From assembly GCA_031286165.1 (NCBI GenBank), contig JAITUU010000015.1, positions 1,558-65,557 on the forward strand: DNA of 64,000 bases, read 5' to 3'. The stretch comes from Bacteroidales bacterium. Lineage in GTDB: Bacteria; Bacteroidota; Bacteroidia; Bacteroidales; UBA1715. How positions within the stretch are numbered: the stretch's first letter is position 1; each line of letters starts with the position of its first letter. Positions 1 to 49,853 of this stretch are shown here, one piece after another. The notes below the pieces were generated by a model. The model had not been told where the DNA came from. It worked only from the letters and a program-made list of their open reading frames with translations, and did no database searches. Made by a program: the position numbers and the translations under genes.

Positions 1-3000
1 ATAGACGATGTTGCATTTTCTCGGAACCATGTAATAGTGCCCGTAGGATTTATTGCAGTAAGAAGTGCGGCAGCACTTCCGGCGCAATTTTCATTTCCTA
101 CAAGAACAGGTTTCGCCGGTTGCGGTTTGATTACAAAGGATTTAGAATCCGCAGTGCTTACACACGATACTGTTTCGCCGGTAGAGGCAAGGCGGTCGGA
201 AATTCGTTGTGTAGCCCATATAGTATAGGCATTGGCACCGCTCCACGAAGGAGTAACAGAACCATTGGTACCCAAACCCACGTAGTCGCTTGGCGATTCG
301 GCACCTTGCACACGCGAAGGTGCAGCATTGTACCATTCTATTACAGAACCGGCAGTATTTCCGCTCACGGTAAATGCCGGTGTGATTTCGTATTCGCAAA
401 TAGATACCGGTGTGTTGATAGTAACCGATTGTGCGCGGCGGATTTGAATAGTAAGCGCAGTACGAGGACCTTCGCAGGCAGCAGGTTGTGCGCCGGCATT
501 GCTTTCGCTCACCCAATAGGTAACTTGATTTTGAGTTTTATCGAGAGTGGTAGGTGTCCACGTAGCAGTAGTAGATGCAGCACTGCTTGCAGTGGCTGTG
601 CCTATCAAAGTTCCTCCTGTTTGTGCAGAATAGAAGTTGAATACCGGAGCATGAGTAGTGGGGCGTGCGCCTTGCAACCATTGTCCGCCTTGCACGGTGA
701 GTTCCGGATTGGCGAAATAATCGCAAATAATGCGGTCGGTGGTGAGCGGTGCAGGCACAGGGCACTGAATAATTACGGTGGCAGGGGTGGTAGCACTATT
801 ACAACCGTTCACTACTTGACGAACAAAATATTGTTTGCCCGGAGCTGTTATCTCTACATTGGCAGGGTCGCCGGTAGGGAAAGGATTTTGCGTTCCGTTT
901 GTAAGAACTCCCGCAGTAGTAGTTTGTGATACGGCAGTAGCAAACCATTCTACTCGTTGGAAGCCATTTGCAGCAGTTTCTAAACTTTCGGCTTTTACCA
1001 CCACAGGTCCCGGAGCACTTGGTGCTTGTTTGTAATCTACCGTAGTAGGTGCCGGAACATATTGCACCGGAATAGTAATAGTTTTTTCGTCTTTACAGCC
1101 GTTGTTGTTGGTTACTTGGTATTTTACGGTATAGGTTGCTGTGGTTTCGCCCCACGTGCTTGGGTTGAACAGAGCGTAACTATTTGGTTCGCTGTTGTTT
1201 CCGGGTTCTATGCCGTTTGCGTGTCCTACAATAGTCCATATATTTTGTTCGGCAGTTGTGCCGGTGGTATTGTTACGAGTAACATTTGCAGTAAGCATAT
1301 TTGCGTCATCATAATTACATAATATACCGTTTTTGGCTTGTGAAATACTTGCTATTACCGGGTCGGCAAATACGGTGAGGGTAACGGCTGCTTTTTGACT
1401 TTCGCAGGTTTGACCACTATTTGCTTCGCGAGCAATGTAACTTACCCAATAAGTAGTAGTGCTTTGCGCGGGTGAATTGTAGGTAGAATTATCGCCTCCT
1501 GCGTTAGGTGCGCCCGAAATTAAGGCACCGGCAGTGCCGTTATTGTCGGCATACCAATTCCATTGCGAAGGAGTAGGAGTGGCTGCGCCGGTGGCGGTGG
1601 TAGGTGCTTTTTCGGCTTTGATAGCCAAGCCTGCGCCGGGTAGTTCTTTTTTACACGAAGCGTTTGGAGTGAGGTCGGGTGCTTGGAAAGGGCAGTCCAC
1701 TAATATAAGGTTTACCGGAGTTTGTGCACTTTCGCAACCGCGAGCATTGAATTGGGTAATATTGAATACTTTGGTAAACGGAGCACCATGTGCTTTTGCA
1801 TCGCTGTCTATTTGTTGTGTAATGTTTCCAATATTACTATATGTAGTGCTGTTGTTTTGCAATCCGGTAGTTTTGTCGGTATCGTACCAATTCATTCTAA
1901 TACCCGGTGCTTGCACGGCAGCAGTTACAAACGTGTTAGGAATATTTGCAATGTCGCTAATGAGCCAGTATTTATCTGCCGGTTGCGGCGGCGCAGGGGT
2001 AAATTGTGCGGTAACGGTAAGGTCGTTTTGATTTGGACACGATGCTTGTATTTCGTCAGAACTTCCGTGTTTTTCAGTAATAGTATATATCACTTTCATA
2101 TCTCGTTGTGTATCGCCGTTAGTCCATGGGTCGGCAGTAGCGTCCCACGAGCGACCGATATTCGGTGTAAATCCCTTCCATGAAGAACCGCTTTGGTCAA
2201 ACGTAAATGAAGACGATGAGGAAAGTGTTGAAGGGTCGGGAGTGAGTTTGAATTTTATAGGATTTTCGTTACGTTTTGCGTCGGTGGCACAAAAATAGGT
2301 ATCGCCATTGGTATTATCCACAGTAATAGTAACATTCGGTTTGTTGTGAATAGAAAGAGTTACAATACCGCCCGAAGACCAGCAATCATTGTCCTTGTCG
2401 TATTCGGCTACATAGAGTGTTTGCGTACTTGCTGTTTGGTTGGCAGATGTGTAGGTAGTTCCTGTACCTAAAATAGTTACGCCATTTTGAGGGAAGGTAG
2501 TTGTATTGCCGGTAAGTCCCACAGGGTTTTTATCGAACCATGCTACTTTTGCAGGGTCAGCAAAAACTGTTGCTTCAAGGCTTGCAGTTTCGCCTAAGCA
2601 GAAGTGTGCATTTTTGGCTTCAGGCGTTTGTGCAGGGCACGAAGTTATGTTTAAAATAGCTGCTTGACATTCGCTGTAACAAGTTTCATTTCCCGCAATT
2701 TGTTTTGTAGCGCGAATTTGGTAGGGATATGTTCCTTTTCCATCGGCTTCGGTTTTACCTGTTTGGTACGTCAATCCTTCAAACAAAATACCCGAAGTGG
2801 TGAGCGCATCGCAGTTGCCATTGGCAAACCACTCAATGGCATTTGCTCCGCTTGGAAGTGTTGCTGTTAAGTTGGTATTTTCACCTGCGGTAAAGTTTCC
2901 ATTGCTTTGAATTTGAATAACTTTTTCCACGAGGGTGGGTTGCGTTACTGCCACGCTGGTAACGCTTGTGGTAGCATCGCCTTTACAGCCTTTGTCATCT

Positions 3001-6000
3001 TCGTAGAGGTAACTGAAATTTTGTGTGCCGCCTGCGGCAAACGGTGAATATTCGCCGGTAGAGGCATTTACCGTACCGTTGCTGCTGCTGAATTCGCCGC
3101 CTGAGGGAGCACCTACGAGTGCAAGATTGCTTGCATTCCAGCACACTTCGGCAGGTGCGGTGAGTGTTACCGTAGGAGGGGTATTAATTGTAAACGTAGT
3201 TTCCGCACTTCCTTTACAGTTGTTGGCATCGGTGTAATGTACACTGATAGTTTTTTGTCCGCTGCTTAAGCCGGTGGTGCTGAATGCGCCGGTACTTGTG
3301 TTTATACCTGTTATACCGCTGTATGCAAACCCGGTAGTGTTACCCATTTGCGCAGCAGTAGTAGGTGCGGTAGGAGTTACGGTTATAGTTATATCTTTGG
3401 AAGGATTCAAGGTATTTACTTCGCACGCACTTGCCGCGCTTGGGGCTATGGTGAAAGTTGGGTTCGGATTTACGGTAATAGTAGTTACCGGAGTAGCTTC
3501 GCCAATACAGCCATTGAGGGTAGGGGTAACGGTAATAGTGCTTGTAATAGCAGCATTGGTAGCGTTTTGGGCAGTAAACGATGCTATATATTCCGAACCG
3601 TTTGCGGCTATGCCGGTGGTGGTGTTGGTAGCAGTCCATGCGTAGTCAATGGCACTTGCCGCAGGTGTGCCGGTAAAGGTAATAAGCGTAGTATTTTCTC
3701 CGGCGCAGAGTGTTTGATTCGGAATTACACTTACGGTAGGAATTTCTTTGATTTTTACGGTAGCAGGAGCGGAAGTAGCCTCGCAACCGTTGTTATCTAC
3801 CACTGTTACGCTTGCGCTGTAAATTCCTGCAACGGTAGATGTAAGTACGTTGGTAGTGGCACCGGTTCCGCCACTCACACTTCCGCCTGTGTCGAGTTTC
3901 CAATTTTTGTAGGTATAAGGAGCACTTCCTTTTGCAGGAGTGGCAGTGAGTGTAAGTGCTGCTTTTTGACAGGCTTCGGCAGGGGCTATGGTAGCAGTAG
4001 GAAGTTCATATACTTCAAATTCCACAGTGGCACTCACCGGGCAGGCATTCGATGCCGAGCCTGCAATTTCTACCTGTACTTTGTGTACTCCGGCAGCAAG
4101 ATTGCTCAAATTGACAGGTGTGAGGCTACCATCGCCTGTGGCAGCACTCAATGTACCGCCACCGCTTACTACGGTGTATTTGAGGGATTCGTTTGCGGTG
4201 AGAGAACCGTCTAAACTAAATCGACTGCGAATGTCTATCGAAGTTTTTGTGCCTTCGCAGAAATCAATCTTATCGGTTTTCAGCGTAATGCCCGGAGGTG
4301 TTACTAAGGTAATTTTTACCGAAGCGGCAGAAGTACCTTCGCATTTGTTTGCGTCTTTTATATCGCTTAGCGTATAGATAATCCCTGCGGCATCTCCTGT
4401 CCAGCCGGTAATTTCACTTTTCCCGGTAGCATCGGTAGTGTAGGTTTTTCCGTCTATGGTAAAGTTCACCGGAGAGGCTCCTTTGGTAAATTGCACGGTA
4501 ACAGTGTGCGCGTTCAATTCACTAATGCAGCCGATTTTATCGGGACCTATGGTATAAACAGGGTTTTCGTGTTCTGTTATCGTAATAGCGTTGCTAGTGA
4601 ATGTACAACCATTGAGGGTAATTTTGCAGGTATAAATACCTGCGGTGGCATTATTGAGCGTTGTTGCTGTAGGAGATGCCGCTCCTTGCGAAACGCCGCC
4701 TTTGAACCATTCATAGCTAGCACCGGTAAGGCTAATGCCGGTTTCGGCTTCAAGCGAAAGGCTAATGCCGGTGGCTGATTTTTCGCTTGCGCAGTATTCT
4801 GTTTTTGTGGCATTGAGCGTTGCCTTCGGCGTAGGGTTTATAGTAATAGTTTGGCTTGCGGTAGCAGGCAGTGTACCTGCGCAACCGTTGGCATCGGTAA
4901 ATTCTTTCAGTTCGTAGGTATAAGTGCCGGGTGCGCTTGGCAGCGTAGTGCCGGTAAGGTTTGCCTTAGAAGAAGCAGTAGTACCCGAAGTTACGCCAAG
5001 TCCACCGGTTGTGAAGGTTGAAGTAAAGGTATATTCTGCTTTTCCTCCGGCAAATTCTACCGTAATAGGTGCAACAGTTGCACCCTCGCAGTAGATAGCC
5101 TGTCCGCCCAACGTGGCGGTAGGGGTAGGGTTTGAAACCACCAGTACTGAATCCCATTTGTAGCAGGCGTCAGACGTGGCAAATGCAGCATCGAAGGCTA
5201 ACACATAGAATTTAGTGCCTTGTTCAGTAGCATCGGTATAGTTTATTGTTTGATTTGAAGTAGTTACACCGGTTTCTGTTTTCAAGCCTGTTCCGCCGGT
5301 GCCGGCATTGTAAGTTGCCGTATTTACCGGTGCTTTAATCCAGCGAATGGTGTATTTGGGAGTGTAGGCAGGGCTGGGCATAATATCGTTGGTGCTCAAA
5401 GCCACGCTTTCGCCTTTACATAAGTTAATAGTGCGAATAGTGCCTGCGCCATCGGGAGTAGTTGTAAGCTTAGCCGTACTTGGTGTTTGTATTGCTATGT
5501 CTTTCGATACCGTACAGTCGGGGCAGTTATCTTCTATAAATACCGGCACGCGGTCGCAAAAACGCTGTGCGGTTTGGAATTTGATGTCGAATGCCATGTG
5601 TCCAAAGTTCGATTGATTACCATTGCTACCAATAGCACCACCAAGATTGAACTTAATAATAGTTTGATTCACATCATCGTTTCCGCTATTAGCCAATGTA
5701 CATGAAGTGGCAAATACTTTTGGATTGCCAAGTCCGGTACCGCTGTATGCAGATGGACCTATAAAATATTCACCCGGAGCCAAAGTTACACTTCCTTTTG
5801 CAATTAATTCAACCATTAAATCTTGTACTTCGCTACCTCGTGTTCTTTCGTATAAATCAGTTACCAAAGTACCGACTGCGGTTCCGGTGGGAACTTTCGT
5901 ATTACTGTTGGTACCTGCTTTGTATATTCCTAAGGTAACTGTTCCACTTCCAGATGCACCAACATTATACAATGACGACATAAAGAATAATTTAGATTCT

Positions 6001-8285
6001 GTAATAGTAACTGTTTCATACACCGTGAAACCGGTATAGTTTGTATTATTAAAACCTGTAATTGCACCCGGATTTGGTAAATTAACATCTCGATTTGTTG
6101 TTTGGCACGGTGCAGAACTTCGTTTTATAAACGTACCCGCAGCAGCAGCACTTTCTTCCACCCACGCCACGCGATATTTGTTGGCAGGTGTGGGGCAAGT
6201 TACGCCGGTGGGTAGTGTGGTTGCGCTGCAGAGTTTGAGTGTGCTTATATCGTTTATTACTGCCGAAACAGGTGCTGCCGGAGCAGTGCCGGAGCCGGTG
6301 GTGGCAGAGCCGCCGGTGGTGGTGGCAAGTGCCGTGCCGCCTACTTCGGCAGCATACCAATTATACACACGGAATTTTATGTCGTTTGCCACCGCCGGTG
6401 CATTAGGGGCTACCCACACCGTTGCTTTTTTGGTAGTGCAATTAAGGCTTAGGTTTGTGGGGTCTTTGTATTCTTGTTTAAAGAATTTCACTTCCATACT
6501 ATCGGCGGCGGGAGGAAAATTACCGCAAGGAGCATTTGTTCCTGTATATTCTACTTCTACTTTCCATCGACCTTCTCCTTTATCGCCTTTTGCTAACATT
6601 TCGGCAACAGTAAGAATTTTATTAGAGTTAGTACTGGCTTTCCCACTTTTTACTTGAGTCCAAGTAGTGGTACCCGGTGCTTGGTAATACCACGTAATGG
6701 TATATTTTGTAAGTATTGTAGCAGCAGTAATTTTATCTGAGAATCCTGATTTTAATTCCTGTCCGGCAAATTGAGTTTTGCATATTTCTACTAATTTTGG
6801 CGAAATATCTGCCATAGGTGCAAGGTCTTGTGCTCCACAACTTATAGGAAGAGTAATTTCAAAAGGGGTTGGTGCATCATCTGTATTTGGTGTTGTTGAA
6901 CCAGCAGGTTTATAACCCAATCCAAGCATGCCGGTTACTCCTGCATCACTATTTGTGTTACAACCAAAGGCATATATTTTGTTATCCATGGTAATAAACC
7001 AACCGCCATGGTCGGCACGGTTGATAAGGAAAATATTGCCTGTGGTATTTGCTGTGCTATTAATATAGCGTGTATAGCCTTTAGTATTATCGCCCTCGGT
7101 AGAAATGCTTGAACCACCACCACCGGCATTACAACCCTTATCGCCACCCCATACTACGGCTCTATCGTCCATGGTAACTGCCATACCGAAACCTTGTCCT
7201 CCGGCTACTTGTTTTGCTTTCAAAAAAGCATTTGGGTCATACGTTCCTCCATTTGGCACTACATCACGAATTTTTCTCGGTTTCCAACCGCTCCCATGAG
7301 GATTTCCGGTAGGACCAAGTTGATTATCCCATCCACCATTACCCCAGCCCCATACGTAATCATCGTTGTCTATGGCATAACCAACGCCATCGGAGCAAGA
7401 AAGATATTTAATATTATTCATAAATCCGGTGCCCGAACCATCAAGACCGGCATAACTGATTTTGGTAGCATAATTGGTTTGTCCCGCGGCTCTTCCCAAA
7501 GCACCATTTCCTTCGGAGGAACCGTTGATTGCCGCGCCTTGGCTCCAACCCCAACTCCATACTTGTCCACTTGCGTCTAATGCGTAAGCAGCATTATCGC
7601 CGGCGCACACCATAACTACGTTTTTTAAGCGTTGTCCGGCTCCGGTAAGTACATAAGCTGCTTCATAACTATCGGTTTGTGTGCCGTTACCCAATATACC
7701 GTAGGTGTGGGTATATTGGTTATCTCCGGCACCATTGCCTCCCCACGATACTAAATCACCGTTGCTTAAAATAGCATAACTCGAAGCATTACCTGCATAT
7801 ACTACCTTTGCGTCTATTAAATAAGTAACTCCGGCAACGGTTTCTTTAAACGCTGCATCAATACCGCTCCCCGCACGCACACGTACCGGCGCACTTACTA
7901 TACCTCCTTTTACGCCGTTACCTACTTGCCCGCGGTCGTTACCACCCCAACTCCATACGTGAGATTTTGGTTGCGCAGCACTTGTGCACGATAATGCCAC
8001 AAAGTGCCCACCCGAACCGGAATTTACTTGTTTCATATCCTCATTATTAAATGAGGCTTTTGGTATTATGGTAGGAGATGTTACTATGGATACAATCGCT
8101 CCGGCACCCAATCTGCCACCATCGTTTTTCCCCCACACTGCCACCAGCGTATTGGAGCAAATATAACTTGACACCGAGTTCCCCCCCGAAATGGTAAGGT
8201 TTGCCTGCGCCCATACGCTTGTACTACAAAGAAGTAGCGCGCTCACTGCGCACACTATACTGCGTAAAAAATGTTTTGTTTTCAT
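1..8285 (-). CDS. Giant secreted adhesin-like protein (>2760 aa, C-terminal end beyond the left window edge): signal peptide, RCC1-like beta-propeller head, then many Cys-containing Ig-like repeats; probable T9SS cargo
   Basis: Manual translation from ATG 8285 gives MKTKHFLRSIVCAVSALLLCSTSVWAQ, with RCC1-type blades (VWSWGGNDRGQVGNG, LVSWGGNG, VWSWGW, VWGWGNGG, IYAFGCN) and Ig-like units (e.g. YTDANNCKG, TTTYWVS..CES). Frame spot-checked at 7559, 3638 and 59, and no stop was found to position 1. In-frame ATGs also occur at 8309 and 8327. Confidence 0.88.
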   Translation of the reverse strand, partial: MKTKHFLRSIVCAVSALLLCSTSVWAQANLTISGGNSVSSYICSNTLVAVWGKNDGGRLGAGAIVSIVTSPTIIPKASFNNEDMKQVNSGSGGHFVALSCTSAAQPKSHVWSWGGNDRGQVGNGVKGGIVSAPVRVRAGSGIDAAFKETVAGVTYLIDAKVVYAGNASSYAILSNGDLVSWGGNGAGDNQYTHTYGILGNGTQTDSYEAAYVLTGAGQRLKNVVMVCAGDNAAYALDASGQVWSWGWSQGAAINGSSEGNGALGRAAGQTNYATKISYAGLDGSGTGFMNNIKYLSCSDGVGYAIDNDDYVWGWGNGGWDNQLGPTGNPHGSGWKPRKIRDVVPNGGTYDPNAFLKAKQVAGGQGFGMAVTMDDRAVVWGGDKGCNAGGGGSSISTEGDNTKGYTRYINSTANTTGNIFLINRADHGGWFITMDNKIYAFGCNTNSDAGVTGMLGLGYKPAGSTTPNTDDAPTPFEITLPISCGAQDLAPMADISPKLVEICKTQFAGQELKSGFSDKITAATILTKYTITWYYQAPGTTTWTQVKSGKASTNSNKILTVAEMLAKGDKGEGRWKVEVEYTGTNAPCGNFPPAADSMEVKFFKQEYKDPTNLSLNCTTKKATVWVAPNAPAVANDIKFRVYNWYAAEVGGTALATTTGGSATTGSGTAPAAPVSAVINDISTLKLCSATTLPTGVTCPTPANKYRVAWVEESAAAAGTFIKRSSAPCQTTNRDVNLPNPGAITGFNNTNYTGFTVYETVTITESKLFFMSSLYNVGASGSGTVTLGIYKAGTNSNTKVPTGTAVGTLVTDLYERTRGSEVQDLMVELIAKGSVTLAPGEYFIGPSAYSGTGLGNPKVFATSCTLANSGNDDVNQTIIKFNLGGAIGSNGNQSNFGHMAFDIKFQTAQRFCDRVPVFIEDNCPDCTVSKDIAIQTPSTAKLTTTPDGAGTIRTINLCKGESVALSTNDIMPSPAYTPKYTIRWIKAPVNTATYNAGTGGTGLKTETGVTTSNQTINYTDATEQGTKFYVLAFDAAFATSDACYKWDSVLVVSNPTPTATLGGQAIYCEGATVAPITVEFAGGKAEYTFTSTFTTGGLGVTSGTTASSKANLTGTTLPSAPGTYTYELKEFTDANGCAGTLPATASQTITINPTPKATLNATKTEYCASEKSATGISLSLEAETGISLTGASYEWFKGGVSQGAASPTATTLNNATAGIYTCKITLNGCTFTSNAITITEHENPVYTIGPDKIGCISELNAHTVTVQFTKGASPVNFTIDGKTYTTDATGKSEITGWTGDAAGIIYTLSDIKDANKCEGTSAASVKITLVTPPGITLKTDKIDFCEGTKTSIDIRSRFSLDGSLTANESLKYTVVSGGGTLSAATGDGSLTPVNLSNLAAGVHKVQVEIAGSASNACPVSATVEFEVYELPTATIAPAEACQKAALTLTATPAKGSAPYTYKNWKLDTGGSVSGGTGATTNVLTSTVAGIYSASVTVVDNNGCEATSAPATVKIKEIPTVSVIPNQTLCAGENTTLITFTGTPAASAIDYAWTATNTTTGIAANGSEYIASFTAQNATNAAITSTITVTPTLNGCIGEATPVTTITVNPNPTFTIAPSAASACEVNTLNPSKDITITVTPTAPTTAAQMGNTTGFAYSGITGINTSTGAFSTTGLSSGQKTISVHYTDANNCKGSAETTFTINTPPTVTLTAPAEVCWNASNLALVGAPSGGEFSSSNGTVNASTGEYSPFAAGGTQNFSYLYEDDKGCKGDATTSVTSVAVTQPTLVEKVIQIQSNGNFTAGENTNLTATLPSGANAIEWFANGNCDALTTSGILFEGLTYQTGKTEADGKGTYPYQIRATKQIAGNETCYSECQAAILNITSCPAQTPEAKNAHFCLGETASLEATVFADPAKVAWFDKNPVGLTGNTTTFPQNGVTILGTGTTYTSANQTASTQTLYVAEYDKDNDCWSSGGIVTLSIHNKPNVTITVDNTNGDTYFCATDAKRNENPIKFKLTPDPSTLSSSSSFTFDQSGSSWKGFTPNIGRSWDATADPWTNGDTQRDMKVIYTITEKHGSSDEIQASCPNQNDLTVTAQFTPAPPQPADKYWLISDIANIPNTFVTAAVQAPGIRMNWYDTDKTTGLQNNSTTYSNIGNITQQIDSDAKAHGAPFTKVFNITQFNARGCESAQTPVNLILVDCPFQAPDLTPNASCKKELPGAGLAIKAEKAPTTATGAATPTPSQWNWYADNNGTAGALISGAPNAGGDNSTYNSPAQSTTTYWVSYIAREANSGQTCESQKAAVTLTVFADPVIASISQAKNGILCNYDDANMLTANVTRNNTTGTTAEQNIWTIVGHANGIEPGNNSEPNSYALFNPSTWGETTATYTVKYQVTNNNGCKDEKTITIPVQYVPAPTTVDYKQAPSAPGPVVVKAESLETAANGFQRVEWFATAVSQTTTAGVLTNGTQNPFPTGDPANVEITAPGKQYFVRQVVNGCNSATTPATVIIQCPVPAPLTTDRIICDYFANPELTVQGGQWLQGARPTTHAPVFNFYSAQTGGTLIGTATASSAASTTATWTPTTLDKTQNQVTYWVSESNAGAQPAACEGPRTALTIQIRRAQSVTINTPVSICEYEITPAFTVSGNTAGSVIEWYNAAPSRVQGAESPSDYVGLGTNGSVTPSWSGANAYTIWATQRISDRLASTGETVSCVSTADSKSFVIKPQPAKPVLVGNENCAGSAAALLTAINPTGTITWFRENATSS

Positions 8286-8407
8286 TGTATTGTTATTTCT
8301 ATGTATCATTGTATTTATGTTTATCATTTCTTATTTCCGGTTTGTACTATTTTGTACTCAATACTCATATTTTGTATCTTGTTTCTATAGTCTTGTACCT
8401 TGTAATT

Positions 8408-8451
8408 GTCTGAACCACGATTTACAGGATTACAGGATTTTTAGGATTTTT
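8408..8451. repeat. GTCTGAACC-headed repeat, half element (copy A)
   Basis: gtctgaaccacgatttacaggattacaggatttttaggattttt; same head as 8615 and 18309. Confidence 0.75.
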
Positions 8452-8480
8452 CCATAATTCGTAATTGTGAATAAAACGCG

Positions 8481-8488
8481 CAAAAATA
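8481..8488 (-). promoter_or_regulatory. Bacteroidota sigma-A -7 box (TATTTTTG) upstream of the giant adhesin gene
   Basis: Reverse complement of caaaaata matches TAnnTTTG, about 195 nt upstream of the ATG. Confidence 0.55.
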
Positions 8489-8614
8489 CAAAATATGATT
8501 TGTATCATGCAGAAATAAGACTAAAAAAACAAGAAAATAGTTGCATGCTCATATAAAAAAATGTTTGTGGTCATGGTAAGTTGCTTATAATCAAGAAAAA
8601 AAAGTTTGTACATT

Positions 8615-8709
8615 GTCTGAACCACAATTTTCAAGATTACAAGATTTTCAGGATTTTTTCTAAAGAATCTTGGTAATTATGAAAATCTTGTAAAAATCAT
8701 GGTTCAGAC
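8615..8709. repeat. Palindromic MITE/REP-like element with GTCTGAACCA...TGGTTCAGAC termini (copy B)
   Basis: Perfect 10-bp terminal inverted repeat; the arms carry inverted caagatt/aatcttg subrepeats. Confidence 0.8.
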
Positions 8710-8726
8710 TTTTTCTGAGCGAAACG

Positions 8727-8776
8727 AAATAATTTACCATTTACAATAAATCATTAATAATTAAATTGTATTTTTG
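8727..8776 (+). repeat. Heptamer-built promoter repeat, copy 1 (ends in TATTTTTG -7 box)
   Basis: 44/50 identical to copy 3 at 9969. Confidence 0.8.
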
Positions 8777-8795
8777 GTGCTACAATTACAGAAGT

Positions 8796-9061
8796 ATGAG
8801 TTTTGTTTTTCAAATCACGCTATTGAGCAAATAGAACGGCGCGGCATTTCTCGCGAAACCGCAATAACCGCTATGGAAAATCCCGACCAAATATGCGTAG
8901 ATACAGAAAATCAAGACCTTCGCATCTATCACTATTTGCTCAAAGAACATGAGCAGATGTTTCTTCTGCGAATTTTCGTGAATGTAATGAAGCAACCGAA
9001 TGTAATTGTAACTATATATAAAACCACCAAAATACACAAGTACTATGAAAGTAAAATATGA
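8796..9061 (+). pseudogene. DUF4258-family putative toxin, probably frameshifted near the start
   Basis: FSNHAIEQIERRGIS...LLRIFVN...IVTIYKTTKIHKY is typical of DUF4258. ATG 8796 (MSFVF) is one T short of the main frame. The in-frame TTG/GTG starts (8774/8777) overlap the promoter box. Confidence 0.6.
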
Positions 9062-9239
9062 CAAAGAACAAGATATTATGTATGTTTCGTTCAGCGATGA
9101 AGCAGTATTTGAAAGCGATGAAGAAAAACAAGGGGTAATCATAGATTATTCTGCGCAAGGAACAGTAGTGGGCATGGAAATTCTGAGTGCTTCTAAGCAT
9201 ATAGGCAATCCGCTGAAAGTGGAATACGAAATCGCGTAA
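9045..9239 (+). CDS. DUF2283-family putative antitoxin
   Basis: MKVKYDKEQDIMYVSF...GVIIDYSAQGTVVGMEILSAS signature; overlaps the DUF4258 gene. Confidence 0.85.
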   Translation: MKVKYDKEQDIMYVSFSDEAVFESDEEKQGVIIDYSAQGTVVGMEILSASKHIGNPLKVEYEIA

Positions 9240-9294
9240 ATAATTCACAATTTACCATTTACCATTAACAATTAAATTGTATGTTTGTACAAAT
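9238..9294 (+). repeat. Heptamer-built promoter repeat, copy 2 (TATGTTTG -7 box at 9280-9287)
   Basis: 55/57 identical to 9969-10025. Confidence 0.9.
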
Positions 9295-9308
9295 CAAAAC
9301 ACAGCAAT

Positions 9309-9566
9309 ATGGCAGCAACGGCACAAATACAATATGCGGTAACCCTACCGGCAAACGACATACTGTTTTTTTCGGAATTAATCAAACGCAATAAATGGAA
9401 ATTAACCCCATTGACCAAAGAAAAAAACACAAAATCGTTCTCTGCTGAGCAAATAGCCATTGTAGAGATGGCGCAAAACGCATGCAACAAACAATTACAG
9501 GGTGCACCCAACCTTTCAACACAAGAAATTGTGCAAGAAGTACGAAATTATCGACATGGAAAATAG
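9309..9566 (+). CDS. Putative antitoxin of PIN TA pair
   Basis: Small ORF overlapping the PIN gene; C-terminal LSTQEIVQEVRNYR resembles PIN-partner antitoxins; ATG 9309 lies downstream of the promoter. Confidence 0.65.
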   Translation: MAATAQIQYAVTLPANDILFFSELIKRNKWKLTPLTKEKNTKSFSAEQIAIVEMAQNACNKQLQGAPNLSTQEIVQEVRNYRHGK

Positions 9567-9960
9567 GGTTGTATTCGATACCAATATTTGGATTAGTAAA
9601 ATCATTACCGGCACCTTACCCACATTTGTTGCGTGGATTTTTGCGCACCACATACAAGCCTTGCGTTCGGAACGCTCAACCGATGAACTGTATGCAGTAT
9701 TGAGCCGCAAGAAATTTGAGAAACACCACATAGATGTACAGGCAAACATGGAGGTATATAAAGCCTTGTGCAAATATTGTAACACCAAAACGCTTTTTAC
9801 CGACTGTGTCGATGTAAACGATAATTTTCTATTCGACCTTGCCATACAAGGAAAGGCGCAGTATATCGTTTCATCCGATAAAATTGTGCTCGCCACACCT
9901 CTGCACCACAGAAAATTACAACTCCTTACCTTCACGCAATTCAAAACCATAATCGGGTAA
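9556..9960 (+). CDS. PIN-domain toxin (PIN_3/TIGR00305-like)
   Basis: RVVFDTNIWIS, DEL, CVDVNDNFLFDLA, IVSSDK acidic tetrad. Confidence 0.85.
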   Translation: MENRVVFDTNIWISKIITGTLPTFVAWIFAHHIQALRSERSTDELYAVLSRKKFEKHHIDVQANMEVYKALCKYCNTKTLFTDCVDVNDNFLFDLAIQGKAQYIVSSDKIVLATPLHHRKLQLLTFTQFKTIIG

Positions 9961-9968
9961 TTACCCCA

Positions 9969-10025
9969 AAATAATTTACAATTTACAATTTACCATTAAC
10001 AATTAAATTGTATGTTTGTACAAAT
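9969..10025 (+). repeat. Heptamer-built promoter repeat, copy 3 (slyD promoter; -7 box 10011-10018)
   Basis: aaataatttacaatttacaatttaccattaacaattaaattgtatgtttgtacaaat. Confidence 0.9.
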
Positions 10026-10043
10026 TTTTAAAACTACAATACT

Positions 10044-10607
10044 ATGAACATAGAAAACGATGCCCTTGTGGCACTTACCTACACCTTGAAAAAAGATAAC
10101 GCCGAAGGCGAAGTAATAGAAGTGTGCTCGGCAGAGCGTCCGCTGGAATTTGTGTATGGCGCAGGCATGATGTTGCCCCACTTTGAAAAACACCTTGCAG
10201 GTTTGGCAGCAGGCGCAAACTACGAATTTACCCTCGCTCCCGATGAAGCCTACGGCGAATTTACCACCGATGCCATAGTGCCGGTGAATAAAGATATTTT
10301 TGCCGATTTTCCCGAAATGCTCGAAGCCGGCAGAATAGTACCCATGCGCGATGCACAAGGAAATCCGCTGCACGGACGCATTATTACCATAGACAACGAT
10401 AAAAACACCGTAACCATAGATTTTAACCACCCTATGGCTGGGCAAACCCTTCATTTCAACGGAACAATAGAAAGCGTGCGCAAAGCCACCGAAGAAGATA
10501 TGCAACGATTTTTCGGCGGCTGCGGCTGTGCTTGCAGCGGCGACGACTGCAATAGCGATTGCTCCGACAAAGAAAACTGCGGCGGCGGAAGTTGCGGCTG
10601 CAATTAA
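10044..10607 (+). CDS. slyD: FKBP-type peptidyl-prolyl isomerase SlyD with Cys-rich tail
   Basis: LAPDEAYGE, VTIDFNHPMAGQTLHF, C-terminal CGCACSGDDC...CGC. Confidence 0.93.
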   Translation: MNIENDALVALTYTLKKDNAEGEVIEVCSAERPLEFVYGAGMMLPHFEKHLAGLAAGANYEFTLAPDEAYGEFTTDAIVPVNKDIFADFPEMLEAGRIVPMRDAQGNPLHGRIITIDNDKNTVTIDFNHPMAGQTLHFNGTIESVRKATEEDMQRFFGGCGCACSGDDCNSDCSDKENCGGGSCGCN

Positions 10608-10680
10608 TTAGTTGAAAGTGGAAAATTGAGAACTGAAAATTGAGACCTCGCAATTTTTAATTCGTAATTCGTAATTGATA

Positions 10681-11418
10681 GTGAATCCTTTTTTCAACAT
10701 AGGACAATACTTTTTGCTCATGGGGCGCGTGTTTACCAAGCCCGATGACGCAAAGGTGTTTCGCGAAAATGTGTGGAAGGAAATTATTCTCATAGGCTAC
10801 TATTCCATTGTTATAGTGCTTATTATTTCCACTTTTATAGGAGCAGTAATTACGCTGCAAACCGCCTACAATATGACCAACCCTATTTACCCCGACTATA
10901 TTATAGGACTTGGCACGCGCGATAGTGTGATTTTGGAATTTTCATCTACCATAGTGGGGCTGGTGCTTGCAGGCAAAGTGGGTTCGAGCATAGCATCGAA
11001 TATAGGCACCATGCAGGTAACGCAGCAAATAGACGCGCTGGAAACTATGGGTGTCAATTCGGCGAATTTTTTGATTCTGCCAAAAATTGTGGCAGCAGTT
11101 ATCACCTTTCCCTTTTTGGGCATTTTGAGTATGATTACCGGTATAGCCGGTGGGTGGCTTGCCGGCATGATGAGCGGCGAAGTGCCTTCGGCGCAGTATG
11201 TGTATGGCTTGCAATATGCGTTTATACCGTACTATATAGTATATAGTTTAATCAAAATTTGCACCTTTGGCATTATCATTTCCTCAGTGGCAAGTTATTA
11301 CGGCTATTACACACGCGGCGGCGCACTCGAAGTGGGAAAAGCAAGCACTACGGCGGTGGTCAATAGCAGTTTAATAATTCTGGTGTTCAATTTACTGCTC
11401 ACGGCACTGCTTTTATAG
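10681..11418 (+). CDS. mlaE: MlaE-family ABC permease
   Basis: LAGKVGSSIASNIGTMQVTQQIDALETMG and GGALEVGKASTTAVV motifs. Confidence 0.9.
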   Translation: MNPFFNIGQYFLLMGRVFTKPDDAKVFRENVWKEIILIGYYSIVIVLIISTFIGAVITLQTAYNMTNPIYPDYIIGLGTRDSVILEFSSTIVGLVLAGKVGSSIASNIGTMQVTQQIDALETMGVNSANFLILPKIVAAVITFPFLGILSMITGIAGGWLAGMMSGEVPSAQYVYGLQYAFIPYYIVYSLIKICTFGIIISSVASYYGYYTRGGALEVGKASTTAVVNSSLIILVFNLLLTALLL

Positions 11419-13443: not shown

Positions 13444-14799
13444 ATGAATAAAGTACAATCGCCGATTTGGGCAAAAGATACACAGGCAAACGAAACAGTT
13501 GCCACATTCACCGTAGGGCGCGATGCCGAGTTCGATACCATGCTTGCGCGTGCCGATGTGTTGGGCAATTTGGCGCATACGCGCATGTTGGCAAGTATTA
13601 ATTTGCTCACACAGGAAGAATTGGCGCAAGTGCAGCAAGGTTTGAAAGAAATTTATACGGATATAGAAAACGGAAGATTTGAAATAGAAGCGGGTGTGGA
13701 AGACGTGCACTCACAAGTGGAACTGCTGCTCACCCGCAAATACGGCGATGTGGGTAAAAAAATTCACAGCGGACGCTCGCGCAACGACCAAATTCTTTTA
13801 GACCTCAAACTCTTCATTCGTGAAGAAATAATACACACACTCCGCACGGTGGAAACGCTGTTTGCACAACTGCAAACGCTGAGCGAGGCGCACAAAAAAA
13901 CGCTGATGCCGGGTTACACGCATTTGCAAATTGCCATGCCATCGTCTTTCGGGCTGTGGTTTGGCTGCTATGCCGAAAGTTTGACCGATGACCTGCAACT
14001 CCTGCTCGCTGCCTACAAAATTACCAACCAAAATCCGCTTGGTTCCGCCGCAGGTTACGGCTCATCGTTTCCGCTCAATCGCAGCATGACCACCGAACTG
14101 CTCGGTTTTGAAAATCTTAATTACAATGTGATGTATGCACAAATGGGGCGCGGAAAAGTTGAAAAAATCACAAGTTATGCCCTTGCTTCTATTGCATCTA
14201 CGTTGGCAAAAATGGCTATGGAAATGTGTCTTTTCATGAATCAAAATTTTGGATTTGTGTCCTTTCCCGAAGAACTCACTACGGGTTCGAGTATTATGCC
14301 CCACAAAAAAAATCCCGATGTATTTGAACTCATTCGCGCAAAATGCAATCGCCTGCAAGCCCTCCCCACCGAGATTACCTTTATTACCACCAATTTGCCT
14401 TTTGGCTACAATCGCGATTTGCAAATTATAAAAGAACACTTTTTGCCCGCCTTTGCCGAACTGCAATCGTGCATGGAATTGACGATGCTCATGTTTGCCA
14501 ACATTCGCATAGCACCCGATATTTTACATTCGCCGCTCTATGATTATTTGTTCAGCGTAGATGAAGTCAATCGCTTGGTGCAGCAGGGCGTGCCCTTTCG
14601 CGATGCCTACAAACAAGTGGGGCGCGAAATCAACGAAGGGAAATTTAACCCTGTAAAAACCGCCGAACACACTCACGAAGGCAGTATAGGGAATTTGTGT
14701 AGCACAGAAATTGCCCGAAAATGTGCGGCAATAGTGGCACAATTCGAGTGGGAGAAAACGGAAAAACAGTTGAAACAGTTGTTAGTTGTTAATTATTAA
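13444..14799 (+). CDS. argH: Argininosuccinate lyase
   Basis: HSGRSRNDQ, MPGYTHLQ, GSSIMPHKKNPD. Confidence 0.96.
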   Translation: MNKVQSPIWAKDTQANETVATFTVGRDAEFDTMLARADVLGNLAHTRMLASINLLTQEELAQVQQGLKEIYTDIENGRFEIEAGVEDVHSQVELLLTRKYGDVGKKIHSGRSRNDQILLDLKLFIREEIIHTLRTVETLFAQLQTLSEAHKKTLMPGYTHLQIAMPSSFGLWFGCYAESLTDDLQLLLAAYKITNQNPLGSAAGYGSSFPLNRSMTTELLGFENLNYNVMYAQMGRGKVEKITSYALASIASTLAKMAMEMCLFMNQNFGFVSFPEELTTGSSIMPHKKNPDVFELIRAKCNRLQALPTEITFITTNLPFGYNRDLQIIKEHFLPAFAELQSCMELTMLMFANIRIAPDILHSPLYDYLFSVDEVNRLVQQGVPFRDAYKQVGREINEGKFNPVKTAEHTHEGSIGNLCSTEIARKCAAIVAQFEWEKTEKQLKQLLVVNY

Positions 14800-15183
14800 T
14801 GGTTTGATTTTGTGCTTTTGATAATGGAAGTTATAATTTTGATAATTTCCACCGCATCGGCATTGAGGCTTTCAAATTCTTGTTCTCCAATGTACGATGT
14901 GGCTACAAGTAATTCTAACCAATACATTGTTTCATTGATTTCTTTTTGTGCTATAGCCATTTTATGTGCAAAATCGGCTTTGCTTTCCGAATGTTCAGCC
15001 TCGCGAACGTTTGCAGCTACCGAAGTGCCACTTCGTAGAATTTGTTTTGATAGTACAAACTCTTTTTTGTGTTCGCACAAATATTTGTACAGATTTATAC
15101 AACGTACAGCAAACGCAAAACTTTTCGCTTTAACAACATTGGTTTTCATAACTCATTAACAATTAACCATTAATAATTAACAA
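14786..15183. repeat. Perfect 19-bp inverted repeat enclosing the four helix bundle gene
   Basis: ttgttaattattaatggtt (14786-14804) is the exact reverse complement of aaccattaataattaacaa (15165-15183). Confidence 0.9.
14796..15149 (-). CDS. Four helix bundle protein (23S rRNA IVS protein / bAvd-like, TIGR02436-type)
   Basis: KSFAFAVR, LSKQILRSGTSVAANVREA, SKADFAHKMAIAQKEINETMYWLELL. Confidence 0.93.
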   Translation of the reverse strand: MKTNVVKAKSFAFAVRCINLYKYLCEHKKEFVLSKQILRSGTSVAANVREAEHSESKADFAHKMAIAQKEINETMYWLELLVATSYIGEQEFESLNADAVEIIKIITSIIKSTKSNH

Positions 15184-16671
15184 TTATTTCGGAATCTGTA
15201 TGCGAATAACCGTGCCTTTGCCGAGTTCCGAAGATTTTACGAAAATTTTGCCTTTGTGATATTCGCTCACTATTCGTTTGGCGAGGCTCAGCCCAAGACC
15301 CCAGCCGCGCGGTTTGGTGGTGTAGCCGGCGGTAAAAATTGTTTTGAATTTATTGCGGGCAATTCCTTTACCGCTGTCTTGCACGTCTATTATAGCATAT
15401 TTGCCGGCGTCCGAAAGGCTCACGCTCACATTTCCTTTGCCGTCCATAGCATCTATGGCGTTTTTTATGATATTTTCCACTACCCATTCAAAAAGTTGCA
15501 CATTCACCGGCGCAATTATGGATTTCTGCGTGCCGAAAACCGTAAAATGCACACTGTTACTTGTGCGCAGGCGCAAATACGCAAGCACATTTTCTACAAT
15601 TTCGTTCAAATTTTCGGGCGTAAGCACCGGTTTTGCCCCAATTTTCGAGAATCGGTCGGCTACTACTTGTAAACGCAGCACATCTTTATTGATTTCGCCA
15701 ATAATATCGGGGTTCACGTGTTCTTCTTTGAGCAATTCCACCCATGCCATGAGCGATGAAATGGGCGTACCCAATTGATGCGCCGTTTCTTTGGACATTC
15801 CCACCAAAAGTTGCGTTTGTTCGTTGCGGCGCAGATTGTAGTACATCATGTAGGCAAGCACCACCAGCAGTACTATGACCAATAAAAACAGTGCCGGATA
15901 AAAGCGCAGGCGAGTGAGCAGTGTGGAATCTTCGTAAAAAATATAGTGAGTAATAGTGCCATTGAGCATAATGGGAATGGGAGTATTACTTTCCATCATG
16001 CGGGCAATTTTTTCGCGTTGCTTTTCTATGGTGCAAAATTCTTTGTCGGCAATATTGCCGCAGGCTATTACTTCGAGCGTATCTACGGTGGTAATAACTA
16101 CCGGCACCGATGCCGAATTGCGTACCACTTCGTCTATAAACGAGGCTATCATATTGTTCATTATCACGTGCAATTCCGAAAATAGGTGCGAATCGGAGTA
16201 GTAGAGGTAATTAATCACCGTGTTGCCATACTGAATGGCAATGGGTTCGTAGTGCGAAAATTCCGCTTTTACACCTGCCGGCATGGCTTCGCCGAGCGCG
16301 AGGTCGAAATTCAAATTGGCGGTGGACACCACCTTGCCTTTGGGGTCGGTGAGAATAATGGGAATATTTTTGTTGCTGCTGATAACTTTGAGCAAATAGG
16401 AAAGAAAATGCGAATCGTTTTCCTGCAAAATCAGCCGCTGCGCCTCGCTCCACATATCTATTTTGCGGCGTTCGTCTTCCTGCAATTTGGTGAACACTTG
16501 GTTGGAATGTTCCACTATGGCATTGCGCTTTTGAATAGCCTCTGCCCACAGCAACACCTGCTTGCGTTCCTCGCGTTTAATATTGGAAATAGTGCGATTG
16601 AGCAGTAAAAAGAGTGCCGCTATGGTAAGCGTGGCAAATATAAATATGCAGTATTTTATGCGAGAGGTCAT
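15184..16671 (-). CDS. Membrane sensor histidine kinase
   Basis: Two TM segments, ETAHQLGTPISSL H-box, ENIIKNAIDA, DSGKGI, GWGLGLSL. Confidence 0.93.
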   Translation of the reverse strand: MTSRIKYCIFIFATLTIAALFLLLNRTISNIKREERKQVLLWAEAIQKRNAIVEHSNQVFTKLQEDERRKIDMWSEAQRLILQENDSHFLSYLLKVISSNKNIPIILTDPKGKVVSTANLNFDLALGEAMPAGVKAEFSHYEPIAIQYGNTVINYLYYSDSHLFSELHVIMNNMIASFIDEVVRNSASVPVVITTVDTLEVIACGNIADKEFCTIEKQREKIARMMESNTPIPIMLNGTITHYIFYEDSTLLTRLRFYPALFLLVIVLLVVLAYMMYYNLRRNEQTQLLVGMSKETAHQLGTPISSLMAWVELLKEEHVNPDIIGEINKDVLRLQVVADRFSKIGAKPVLTPENLNEIVENVLAYLRLRTSNSVHFTVFGTQKSIIAPVNVQLFEWVVENIIKNAIDAMDGKGNVSVSLSDAGKYAIIDVQDSGKGIARNKFKTIFTAGYTTKPRGWGLGLSLAKRIVSEYHKGKIFVKSSELGKGTVIRIQIPK

Positions 16672-24847: not shown

Positions 24848-24902
24848 AAATAATTTACAATTTACAATTTACAATTTACAATTATAGTATATTTGTACAA
24901 AT
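24848..24902 (+). repeat. Heptamer-built promoter repeat, copy 4 (TATATTTG at 24888-24895)
   Basis: aaat(aatttac)x4 aattatagtatatttgtacaaat; preceded by an octamer array at 24804-24846. Confidence 0.8.
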
Positions 24903-36070: not shown

Positions 36071-36120
36071 AAAATAATTCGTAATTACTAATTGTTAATT
36101 CACAATTTTGTGTACTTTTG
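36071..36120 (+). promoter_or_regulatory. Heptamer-array promoter of the RelE/HigA pair
   Basis: aaaat aattcgt aattact aattgtt aattcac aattttg tg TACTTTTG. Confidence 0.65.
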
Positions 36121-36164
36121 TTATACGGTATTATTGTGCTAATGAGCAATAATGTAACGAAAGA

Positions 36165-36496
36165 ATGACGGAAAGAACCATAACAGCATATAAAAATTAC
36201 TTTTTAGATTTTATTCAATCGCTTGATGCAAATGTATCTAAAAAGATATTTTATGTGCTTGATATGCTCAAATCGCAAAATAGAATTTCCGAAAATTTAT
36301 TAAATATATTCGTGAAGGAGTATATGAATTACGTTCGGAATATGAAGGAAACATCTATCGCGTTTTCTTTTGTTTTGATAAAGGTAATGTGGTAATTCTT
36401 TTCAATGGATTTCAAAAGAAAACACAGAAAACTCCCGAAAAAGAAATTAAAAAGGCAATAACATTAAAGAATGAATATTATGCACATAAAGAATGA
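36165..36496 (+). pseudogene. RelE/ParE (Gp49/HigB-like) toxin, split by a -1 frameshift at about 36293
   Basis: Frame 0 reads ...DMLKSQNRISE. The -1 frame continues KFIKYIREGVYELRSEYEGNIYRVFFCFDKGNVVILFNGFQKKTQKTPEKEIKKA to TGA at 36494-36496. Confidence 0.88.
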
Positions 36497-36779
36497 TAAT
36501 CTCACAAGTATAGATGATATAATGGATAATCTCTATGGAAAAGTTGGTACGCCGGAGCGTGAAGCATTTCGGAGTGAAGCATATACTCATTGTGTGGGAG
36601 AAGTAATACATGAAATTCGCAAAGCCGAAAAAATAAGTCAATCGGAACTTGCCAATAGAGTAGGTTTGAAAAAATCGTATATTTCAAAAATAGAGAAGGG
36701 GATTATAGAACCAAGCGTATCTACGTTTTACCGCATTGCCAATGCCTTAGGACGTTCAGTGGAATTATTACCTGCGTGA
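36480..36779 (+). CDS. HigA-like XRE/HTH antitoxin
   Basis: YGKVGTPEREAF, IRKAEKISQSELANRVGLKKSYISKIEKG. Confidence 0.88.
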   Translation: MHIKNDNLTSIDDIMDNLYGKVGTPEREAFRSEAYTHCVGEVIHEIRKAEKISQSELANRVGLKKSYISKIEKGIIEPSVSTFYRIANALGRSVELLPA

Positions 36780-36808
36780 TTTTTTATTTTCCAAAATTCT
36801 TTTTCGTT

Positions 36809-38092
36809 ATGACAATACAAAATTTTTATACCGAGATTTTTCTCAATCACCCCACTATTTCTACCGATTCGCGCAGTATTACGCCCGGTTGTGTGTTTTT
36901 CGCGCTTTCGGGCGAAAATTTTAATGGCAATACCTTTGCTGCGCAGGCAATAGAGCAGGGGGCAGCCTATGCGGTGGTGGACGATACCAATTTGGCATCA
37001 AACGAACGTTGCATTGTAGTGGAACATGTATTGCAATTTTTACAACAAGTAGCCGCCTATCATAGAAGGCAGTGTAGGGCAAAAATTATTGCCATTACCG
37101 GCACCAATGGAAAAACTACTACCAAAGAATTGATTTCGGCTGTGTTGTCGCAAAAATTCAATACCATTAACACGCTGGGAAATTTGAATAATCACATAGG
37201 AGTACCGCTCACGCTGCTGCGCATTACTGCCGACACAGAAATTGCCATAGTGGAAATGGGTGCCAATCACGAAAAGGAAATCGCGTTTTTGTGCTCCATT
37301 GCACAACCCGATTACGGGATTATTACCAACGTGGGCAAGGCGCATTTGCAGGGGTTTGGCAGTTTCGAGGGGGTTATTCGTACCAAAACAGAACTGTATG
37401 ACAGTATAAAAGCACATGGAGGCACTATATTTCAAGATTTTGACAATGAAATTTTGCGTGCAAACGATAAAGAAATTACCAACTGTGTGTCGTATGCCTT
37501 CAATGCTGATGCGCAGTACAGAGGCGAACTTGTGCGCACATCGCTCTTTGCGGCGTTTTGTTTTGTGCATGGCGGCTCGCGCACGTTTATACAATCGAAC
37601 CTTTTCGGCGAATACAATGCCAAAAATATGCTCGCTGCGGCGGCTATCGGGGCGTATTTCGGTGTGTCCGATAAAGCAATACAAACAGCGATAGAACATT
37701 ACACGCCCACCAATAATCGCTCACAACTGCAAAAAACAGCGCACAATACCTTGATTTTAGATGCCTACAATGCCAATCCTACGAGTATGCGTGCGGCTAT
37801 TGAGGCATTTGCGCAGGTGGAGCAAGCGCACAAAACCCTTATTTTGGGCGAAATGTTTGAATTGGGCGAAGATGCCCAAAAAGAACATCAAGCAATTATA
37901 AAACTCATTGATTCATTGAAGTTTACATCGGTATTTTTGGTGGGGAATTGGCACGCGCACACGCACTACAATCATTTTGCCACTGCGCACGATTTAAAAA
38001 CCTACCTTACCGCTCACCCACTCAAACAGCAATACATATTTATAAAAGGTTCGCGCGGTGTGAAGTTGGAAACGGTGGTGGACGTTTTGTAA
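36809..38092 (+). CDS. murF: UDP-N-acetylmuramoyl-tripeptide--D-Ala-D-Ala ligase
   Basis: STDSR, ITGTNGKTTTKE, NLNNHIGVP, DAYNANPTSM, KGSRG. Confidence 0.96.
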   Translation: MTIQNFYTEIFLNHPTISTDSRSITPGCVFFALSGENFNGNTFAAQAIEQGAAYAVVDDTNLASNERCIVVEHVLQFLQQVAAYHRRQCRAKIIAITGTNGKTTTKELISAVLSQKFNTINTLGNLNNHIGVPLTLLRITADTEIAIVEMGANHEKEIAFLCSIAQPDYGIITNVGKAHLQGFGSFEGVIRTKTELYDSIKAHGGTIFQDFDNEILRANDKEITNCVSYAFNADAQYRGELVRTSLFAAFCFVHGGSRTFIQSNLFGEYNAKNMLAAAAIGAYFGVSDKAIQTAIEHYTPTNNRSQLQKTAHNTLILDAYNANPTSMRAAIEAFAQVEQAHKTLILGEMFELGEDAQKEHQAIIKLIDSLKFTSVFLVGNWHAHTHYNHFATAHDLKTYLTAHPLKQQYIFIKGSRGVKLETVVDVL

Positions 38093-48619: not shown

Positions 48620-48928
48620 CTATTTTTAAGTTTAAACCCCTATATTAACTAAGTCTTCAAAAAGACCTCAATTTCATGTATTTACTAAAATTTGCAAAAT
48701 CATAATTACAACACACATTTTGCCTATTTTAATGAACTCCAAATATACTGCGAAAAATCTGAAAAACCAAAGGTTTTTGCATTTATTTTTCACTATTGCA
48801 GGTAATACGCTCTCATACAACACAATATTATATGTATCTATTCGTTTGTTGTTCCATGCTTTATTTCATAACAATTTATGTGCTACCACACCCTACACGC
48901 TGGTAATTGAAAGTTGAAAATTAGATAC

Positions 48929-48964
48929 AAAAAAAGCCCGCTACTTTGGTAGCAGGCTTTTTTT
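48929..48964. terminator. Intrinsic terminator after tonB
   Basis: A run, gcccgctac/gtagcaggc stem, T run. Confidence 0.75.
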
Positions 48965-49000
48965 GTATCTAAAAGTCTTGTGTTTAATCACTAAGCACTA

Positions 49001-49840: not shown

Positions 49841-49853
49841 CTGTTTATTGTTA

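Follow-up and report, generated by a model that had tools for sequence, protein, structure and literature searches.

Insertion with a long duplication of the target has been described for restriction-modification genes, first in Helicobacter pylori, and the accessible part of that report gives duplications of more than 30 bp (44–47 bp in its Table 2) and leaves the mechanism unresolved (Furuta, Abe and Kobayashi 2010, PMC2853133). In Photorhabdus, one small islet of toxin-antitoxin (TA) genes is flanked by two copies of a site that is present once in a relative (PMC13617665); the phrase 'direct repeat' is absent from the available portion of that paper. Intergenic direct repeats of heptamers are also known, with polymerase slippage reported as their proposed origin in the open sections of MacGregor 2015 (PMC4679880), where the long simple sequence repeats of Mrazek 2007 are summarised as well. 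Here we analysed a window of 64,000 nucleotides (the whole stretch of DNA under study) from a Bacteroidales bacterium, part of a 2.5-Mb assembly (G000) that is 98.7% complete, and found two TA-type gene pairs in tandem before a slyD-like gene. Like the TA cassette arrays of integrons, the locus consists of tandem small gene pairs with a repeat between them that starts at the stop codon.

The window contains three direct repeats of 57 nt, with starts at 8727, 9238 and 9969 and thus 511 and 731 bp apart, and these repeats and the genes between them all lie on the + strand. Copy 1 (8727–8783) carries a heptamer array and a TAnnTTTG box at 8769–8776. It is followed by a DUF4258 gene encoding a putative toxin (8796–9061; PF14076, E = 2e-7) and a DUF2283 gene encoding a putative antitoxin of 64 aa (9045–9239; PF10049, E = 5e-18), the TAA stop of which (9237–9239) overlaps copy 2. 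Copy 2 (9238–9294, −7 box 9280–9287) is the predicted promoter of a second pair, formed by an 85-aa putative antitoxin gene (9309–9566) and a 134-aa putative toxin gene of the PIN_3/TIGR00305 type (9556–9960; PF13470, E = 6e-12; TIGR00305 above cut-off). The PIN stop lies at 9958–9960 and copy 3 (9969–10025, −7 box 10011–10018), the predicted slyD promoter, begins 9 nt later. The conserved downstream gene (10044–10607; PF00254) encodes an FKBP-type peptidyl-prolyl isomerase of 187 aa, which we take to be SlyD because of its FKBP domain and Cys-rich tail, and it was matched in 25 of 31 genomes, G000 among them. An Rfam scan of 8300–10700 gave no match at E≤0.1. Just 5′ of copy 1 (8405–8451 and 8612–8709) are REP-like direct and inverted repeats with units of 8–9 nt, and sequences related to them occur in many contigs of other organisms in two metagenome runs, X2 and X3. 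On the − strand, 1–8286 is taken up by a very large ORF of more than 2,760 codons that is still open where the window begins; it points away from the stack, its start resembles a signal peptide, and it probably encodes a surface protein.

The 85-aa ORF overlaps the recognised PIN_3/TIGR00305 gene, suggesting that the two form a putative type II TA-type pair, with the antitoxin role assigned from this overlap. The ORF had zero matches in Pfam or NCBIfam and only unnamed Bacteroidota look-alikes (<0.9), and small genes resembling it stand 5′ of PIN homologues too. DUF4258 and DUF2283 presumably form a TA pair as well; a search of the open literature yielded no work mentioning both. The DUF4258 gene has no in-frame ATG: the sole nearby one (8796) is out of frame and meets a stop after 12 codons, and the in-frame TTG and GTG starts lie inside or beside the −7 box. 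The homologue in the congener G002 is intact, so the outer pair looks decayed and its DUF4258 member is likely a pseudogene.

Copies 2 and 3 are identical at 55 of 57 positions. Their mismatches, at positions 9 and 19, lie only in the 5′ third, and the 3′ 38 nt are identical, including the tail in which other members of the repeat family vary. When 104 elements of the genome were aligned, copies 2 and 3 were the closest of 5,356 pairs (53/55, tail 7/7); the runner-up pairs (52/55) were unlinked, near-consensus copies with differing tails. A rarity-weighted score was 37.1 for copies 2 and 3, which share private variants, compared to 27.2 for the next pair. Judged from these letters, the two copies likely derive from one duplication of the predicted slyD promoter, and, their 3′ ends being identical, duplication of one sequence is a better fit than a crossover of two family members. 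Copy 1 matched copy 3 at 44 of 50 positions and copy 2 at 42 of 50, and only at 43–45 of 57 over the full length. It was no closer overall to copies 2 and 3 (43/55) than to other members (44/55), and on the weighted measure 6 and 8 of 81 other members scored equal or better; an 11-nt variant is common to all three copies and present in 0 of the 81 others. Copy 1 is thus ambiguous as a duplicate of copies 2 and 3. The layout, the spacings and the 55/57 and 44/50 identities that had been given in a preliminary description of this DNA were all reproduced, as were the three boxes and the start of the inner repeats at, or within 10 nt of, the preceding stop codon.

We consider it fairly probable (about 0.6) that the antitoxin/PIN pair was inserted before slyD in an event that duplicated a 57-bp target, probably by host recombination or repair and with no dedicated integrase. 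In such an event the foreign pair would have entered at the slyD promoter, and host enzymes would have copied 57 bp of a target that happens to be one of about 105 heptamer-plus-TAnnTTTG elements of the genome; the direction, gain and not loss, is what we infer. The TA pair and slyD would then have a promoter each, and this would account for the insertion having been tolerated. The repeat would also permit clean loss by recombination, and TA addiction, given toxin activity of the predicted kind, would oppose that loss. The DUF4258/DUF2283 pair probably arrived at this spot earlier and is now in decay.

The inserts, 674 bp for antitoxin/PIN (9295–9968) and 454 bp for the outer pair, hold TA-type genes only, with neither integrase nor transposase. 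An insertion sequence, a MITE or another non-autonomous transposon was rejected, since terminal inverted repeats were absent (5/15 and 1/15 matches at the insert ends) and no mobility gene was present. As in the available text of Furuta 2010 (PMC2853133), a short insert (<20 kb) without a mobility gene lies between near-identical direct repeats of more than 30 bp. Unlike the insertions in that text, the cargo here is a TA pair and not restriction-modification genes, and it contains no DNA-cutting enzyme to start a break, which points to host repair as the agent; in addition, the target is itself one member of a multicopy promoter family, there is a stack of two pairs, and the genomes searched gave no empty site. 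The locus also resembles the Photorhabdus islets, as far as the available portion of PMC13617665 describes them, in being a small TA-only island that has no mobility genes and was probably gained and then eroded, but the site there is palindromic and Tn3 res-I-like, whereas here it is a non-palindromic host promoter element.

The tight packing of tandem gene pairs, with stops abutting the repeat, together with tyrosine-recombinase-like genes in the genome (sub-threshold matches), would fit a dedicated system of the integron type, the repeat being recognised by a recombinase supplied in trans. Against this, none of seven matches to the integron integrase model TIGR02249 in the 98.7% complete genome was above the cut-off (best 112 of 265 bits), no RYYYAAC or GTTRRRY boxes were found in or near the three copies, and the folding of the copies was no better than that of shuffles (z 0.37 to −0.77). 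Furthermore, members of this sequence family stand before the genes for gyrase, RecA and tRNA synthetases. Unlike integrons, then, the locus has no IntI and no attC motifs or hairpin, and its repeat is a general promoter-type element. The integron-like array that had been proposed for this locus did not survive these comparisons, and we regard such a system as very improbable; the footprint is likely of the known integrase-free kind.

No empty slyD site was found in 31 genomes and one metagenome scan, which included no close relative. The nearest slyD orthologues were 71% and 66% identical, with promoter regions wholly different from that of the locus. In the congeners G001 and G002, homologues of both pairs lie at unrelated sites without the element, and the slyD orthologues carry neither pair. 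The orthologous prfC and pyrB sites of G001 and G002 were tried as empty sites and rejected, as their neighbours differ and the sites are not clean.

The locus was present in a single metagenome run, X1, from termite gut, which may be the source sample; X2 and X3 were without it. Contigs of X1 cover 8300–10700 with zero differences, the letters of the DUF4258 gene included, and the repeat is therefore real. They break exactly at the 38-nt core common to copies 2 and 3, so that they cannot tell an integrated copy from an empty site plus a circle. This break, and a depth of 20.5 for the middle contig against 16 and 18.4 for the outer ones, would be expected if the TA pair were a small circle or belonged elsewhere and the assembler had threaded it through the repeat. 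Such an artefact is hardly credible to us, because the two distinct 5′ halves stand in separate X1 contigs without differences, the depths are near 1:1:1, and the same pattern is seen at repeats shorter than the word length, where one X1 contig (L031 1699–4201) runs through both copies of the repeat on contig C29. No circle was found, and no joint skipping 511 bp, 731 bp or the C29 cassette was seen among X1 contigs, which drop rare variants, so this is not evidence of absence.

We then consider the element itself. A profile built from 47 seed copies, with a threshold of at least 15 bits and the −7 box included, found 104 copies in the genome, compared to 0 after shuffling of the genome; copy 1 is a weaker member that comes on top of these 104. 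The element spans about 50 bp and comprises about four degenerate AAYTnnn units set in phase with the −7 box (an example is at 24848–24895 of the window), and the last unit lies 6 nt from the box in 83 of 100 copies, a spacing that is partly imposed by the profile. Period-7 arrays numbered 227 in the genome, compared to 5–61 for periods 5, 6 and 8–11, and were mostly intergenic, with 14 of the 227 inside ORFs of at least 150 aa. Of 579 ORFs with a −7 box no more than 60 nt away, 80 carry the element, or about 14% of predicted promoters. Among 100 copies with a downstream ORF, 90 precede one of at least 140 aa, and the median distance to the ATG is 24 nt. When 40 of these 100 ORFs were drawn at random, 30 matched ordinary, non-TA Pfam families and 10 had no match at 1e-8, three of the latter heading TA-type operons. 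Ordinary genes behind the element include those for gyrase B, RecA, five tRNA synthetases, metabolic enzymes and transporters. These results indicate that the element family itself is not cassette machinery.

In the open sections of MacGregor 2015 (PMC4679880), heptamers likewise form genome-wide, strain-specific, non-coding 7-nt arrays before mixed and often essential genes, in some Bacteroidetes among others; those arrays stand a few nt from the start codon and are read as translational signals, whereas the units described here lie upstream of a −7 box in fixed phase, at the median distance given above. A search of the open literature, with subscription journals and supplements outside its scope, found nothing on a promoter-phased heptamer element. 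The −7 boxes of copies 2 and 3 lie 21 and 25 nt before their ATGs. Both copies have an atypical G at −9, a base nearly absent from that position in Flavobacterium promoters according to the accessible part of PMC6847099, so promoter activity is not assured. On the numbering used there, which puts the final G at −5, the last duplicated position would be about +3; the insert would accordingly begin with the 5′ UTR and reach 8 nt beyond the PIN stop.

An exact pattern of the element had 67 matches in G000 and 42 in G002, and G001, which is 79% complete, had 10; a few reverse readings of the same array are included in these numbers. Each of 21 other family members had at most 6. In an order-wide sample, 45 of 301 genomes were matched, with at most 10 matches per any other genome. 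Only 11 of 33 element-bearing promoters of G002 with an orthologue in G000 also carried the element there (one gene was counted twice and a few of the others have different heptamers), suggesting that predicted promoters carry it as a labile cap. By these pattern counts the element is expanded in the genus and appears to be gained and lost quickly between congeners. The fast turnover, together with the presence of the element on 80 of 579 predicted promoters and the 52/55 identity reached by unlinked copies, raises the question of whether there was a duplication at all: the TA pairs could have brought their own promoters, each being capped by the element later, with local gene conversion making copies 2 and 3 alike. 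We consider this quite unlikely, because the unlinked 52/55 pairs are near-consensus with different tails, while the tails of copies 2 and 3 agree at 7/7 and these two copies have private variants in common. Separate capping also leaves the unrelated repeats around other accessory genes, described below, unexplained.

TA operons stood behind an element in 5 of 18 cases against the background of 80 of 579, which was not significant (p=0.16) even though the count is biased upward by both pairs at the slyD locus and one operon that was found via the element. Three TA-type operons follow an element without a second copy. These operons, the failure to find an empty allele in the genomes searched, the failure of copy 1 to be closer to copies 2 and 3 than to other members, and the G at −9 count against our explanation of insertion with target duplication. 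The repeat had been thought to double as a promoter and as the place of recombination. It is multicopy (about 105), a point missed in the preliminary description, and precedes both the inner TA pair and slyD as a predicted promoter; it is not a dedicated cassette site, since it stands mostly before genes of ordinary families and lacks significant enrichment at TA operons. Other bracketed accessory genes in the genome have unrelated repeats.

Two further places in the window touch on the element. At 36072–37440, an element is followed by a Gp49-type toxin gene split over two frames, an HTH antitoxin gene and a Mur ligase gene, with no second element copy; our search found no close orthologue of that Mur ligase. 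At 14764–15186, a four-helix-bundle gene (TIGR02436) lies between two oppositely oriented heptamer arrays. The idea of the element as a scar of insertion of such genes found no support: 0 of 63 element matches in relatives had one within 700 bp upstream, and only two such genes were found in G000.

We scanned the genome for exact 20-mers 150–4000 bp apart, which gave 129 repeats, 28 of them not wholly coding. Half of these 28 non-coding direct repeats, at 10 places, bracket accessory genes, and the repeats are mutually unrelated; the cargo includes Fic, PIN_3, YoeB, YafQ, HigB, AAA_14/DUF4143, an archaeal-type ATPase and YhcG. At the nine places besides slyD, repeats of 26–68 bp surround TA, Fic or ATPase genes. 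What they duplicate is a promoter or a terminator, and the last stop codon is often followed within about 15 nt by the second copy. Nine of 12 repeats tested have only two copies in the genome and three are multicopy. A flanking repeat scoring at least 25 was found for 9 of 39 accessory genes picked by Pfam family and for 9 of 1,541 control ORFs, one hit of a further Pfam search being left aside. The p-value of this enrichment is overstated because the families were picked after the repeat scan had been seen; several of the nine control matches are accessory genes themselves or antisense frames of the slyD locus. The other 30 accessory genes had no flanking repeat.

Some of these places show further structure. 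A 357-aa archaeal-type AAA ATPase gene occurs in G000 (contig C21; L030:1760–2999) and in G002 (contig C15; L230:1500–2745), with 77% DNA identity but at different loci, and the same palindromic repeat stands on both sides of it in the two species. Since the gene carries it at a different site in G002, the repeat belongs to the gene and not to the target; the gene is possibly a one-gene unit with its own terminal sites, recombinase or operator sites. This repeat that travels with its gene, the three multicopy repeats and the 30 genes without a repeat count against target duplication. On contig C43 of G000 (48608–49891; L034:2109–3392), tandem YoeB and YafQ pairs have in common a terminator repeat (68/68) and a near-identical stretch of 176 bp that covers the promoter and the 5′ part of the antitoxin, which looks like duplication of a TA unit followed by a swap of its toxin half. 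A similar staggered repeat pair surrounds Fic and a probable pair, which we take to be HicBA, on contig C19.

Elsewhere in the order, flanking repeats of this kind were found at 5 of 25 scored DUF2283 loci (29 given) and at 6 of 24 scored PIN loci (28 given). Together these are 11 of 49 TA homologues, compared to 0 of 25 slyD control loci (26 given), and several of the 11 look like dispersed repeat families. Clean target copies were found at L160, L188 and L201, the L160 repeat being a 118-bp copy of the end of the upstream gene. At L188 (1147–1944; G117, contig C25) a PIN TA pair lies between perfect 53-bp repeats (53/53) that span a −7 box and the opening codons of the gene downstream, and the first inserted gene likely takes its start codon from the upstream copy. 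Among the PIN loci scored within the family, 1 of 15 was repeat-flanked. A genome-contig scan gave 5 of 33 PIN loci, two of the five being coding duplications; the closest PIN homologue in that scan (47%; L084) has an unrelated 51-bp repeat with a −7 box, the second copy of which overlaps the PIN stop.

A second three-element stack was found on contig C563 of G117, from another family of the order (L118:1–1680), which was picked by hand for two element matches 658 bp apart. It reads element, nucleotidyltransferase gene, element, small ORF with PemK/MazF, element and HSDR_N_2 gene, and its inner element copies are identical at 54 of 56 positions; after the nucleotidyltransferase gene there is an apparent cut-off start of what we take to be a HEPN gene. 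The other close pair picked by hand, on contig C14 of G265, does not bracket a TA pair. TA-type three-element stacks thus exist in two families but are rare.

Two independent stacks of this kind before a conserved gene, the 5 of 18 TA operons behind an element, and the 11-nt variant confined to the three copies, which fits repeated use of one site, could also mean that the homology was portable. A TA pair with its own heptamer promoter would then have been circularised or transferred and have recombined into the slyD element, the dispersed family serving as integrase-free landing pads on which cassettes are stacked. We hold this to be possible but unlikely. One crossover of two members should leave unlike 3′ ends, and those of copies 2 and 3 are identical; the enrichment of TA operons was not significant despite its upward-biased count; none of the 42 matches in G002 had a second copy nearby, and the one such copy among 20 matches in four other genomes did not bracket a TA pair; and most bracketed modules use other repeats. 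The broader view, in which the element is a self-spreading promoter cap that rewrites hundreds of housekeeping promoters in the genus and is also a slippage- or recombination-prone landing pad stacking TA pairs without integrase across the order, seems to us rather unlikely. The preliminary description, in which TA modules were stacked by recombination at the repeat, is upheld in part: the inner pair lies between near-identical promoter-type copies, leaving a predicted promoter for it and another for slyD, and a second stack exists; the 3′ identity of copies 2 and 3 favours duplication of one sequence, and copy 1 is not an established duplicate.

We return to insertion with duplication of the target as the preferred reading. 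Nothing was found on TA pairs with long target duplications in the open literature, subscription journals and supplements lying outside the scope of that search. The route by which TA genes reach chromosomal sites without a mobility gene close by is still to be explained. In this genome and in the order, long duplications flank many TA, Fic and ATPase genes, which extends the footprint described for restriction-modification genes to cargo that lacks a DNA-cutting enzyme. Two features are new here: the second three-element TA-type stack, in another family, and the phased heptamer element on about 14% of predicted promoters, with its turnover between congeners. Finally, duplication of the promoter would be a simple reason why such insertions survive before core genes.
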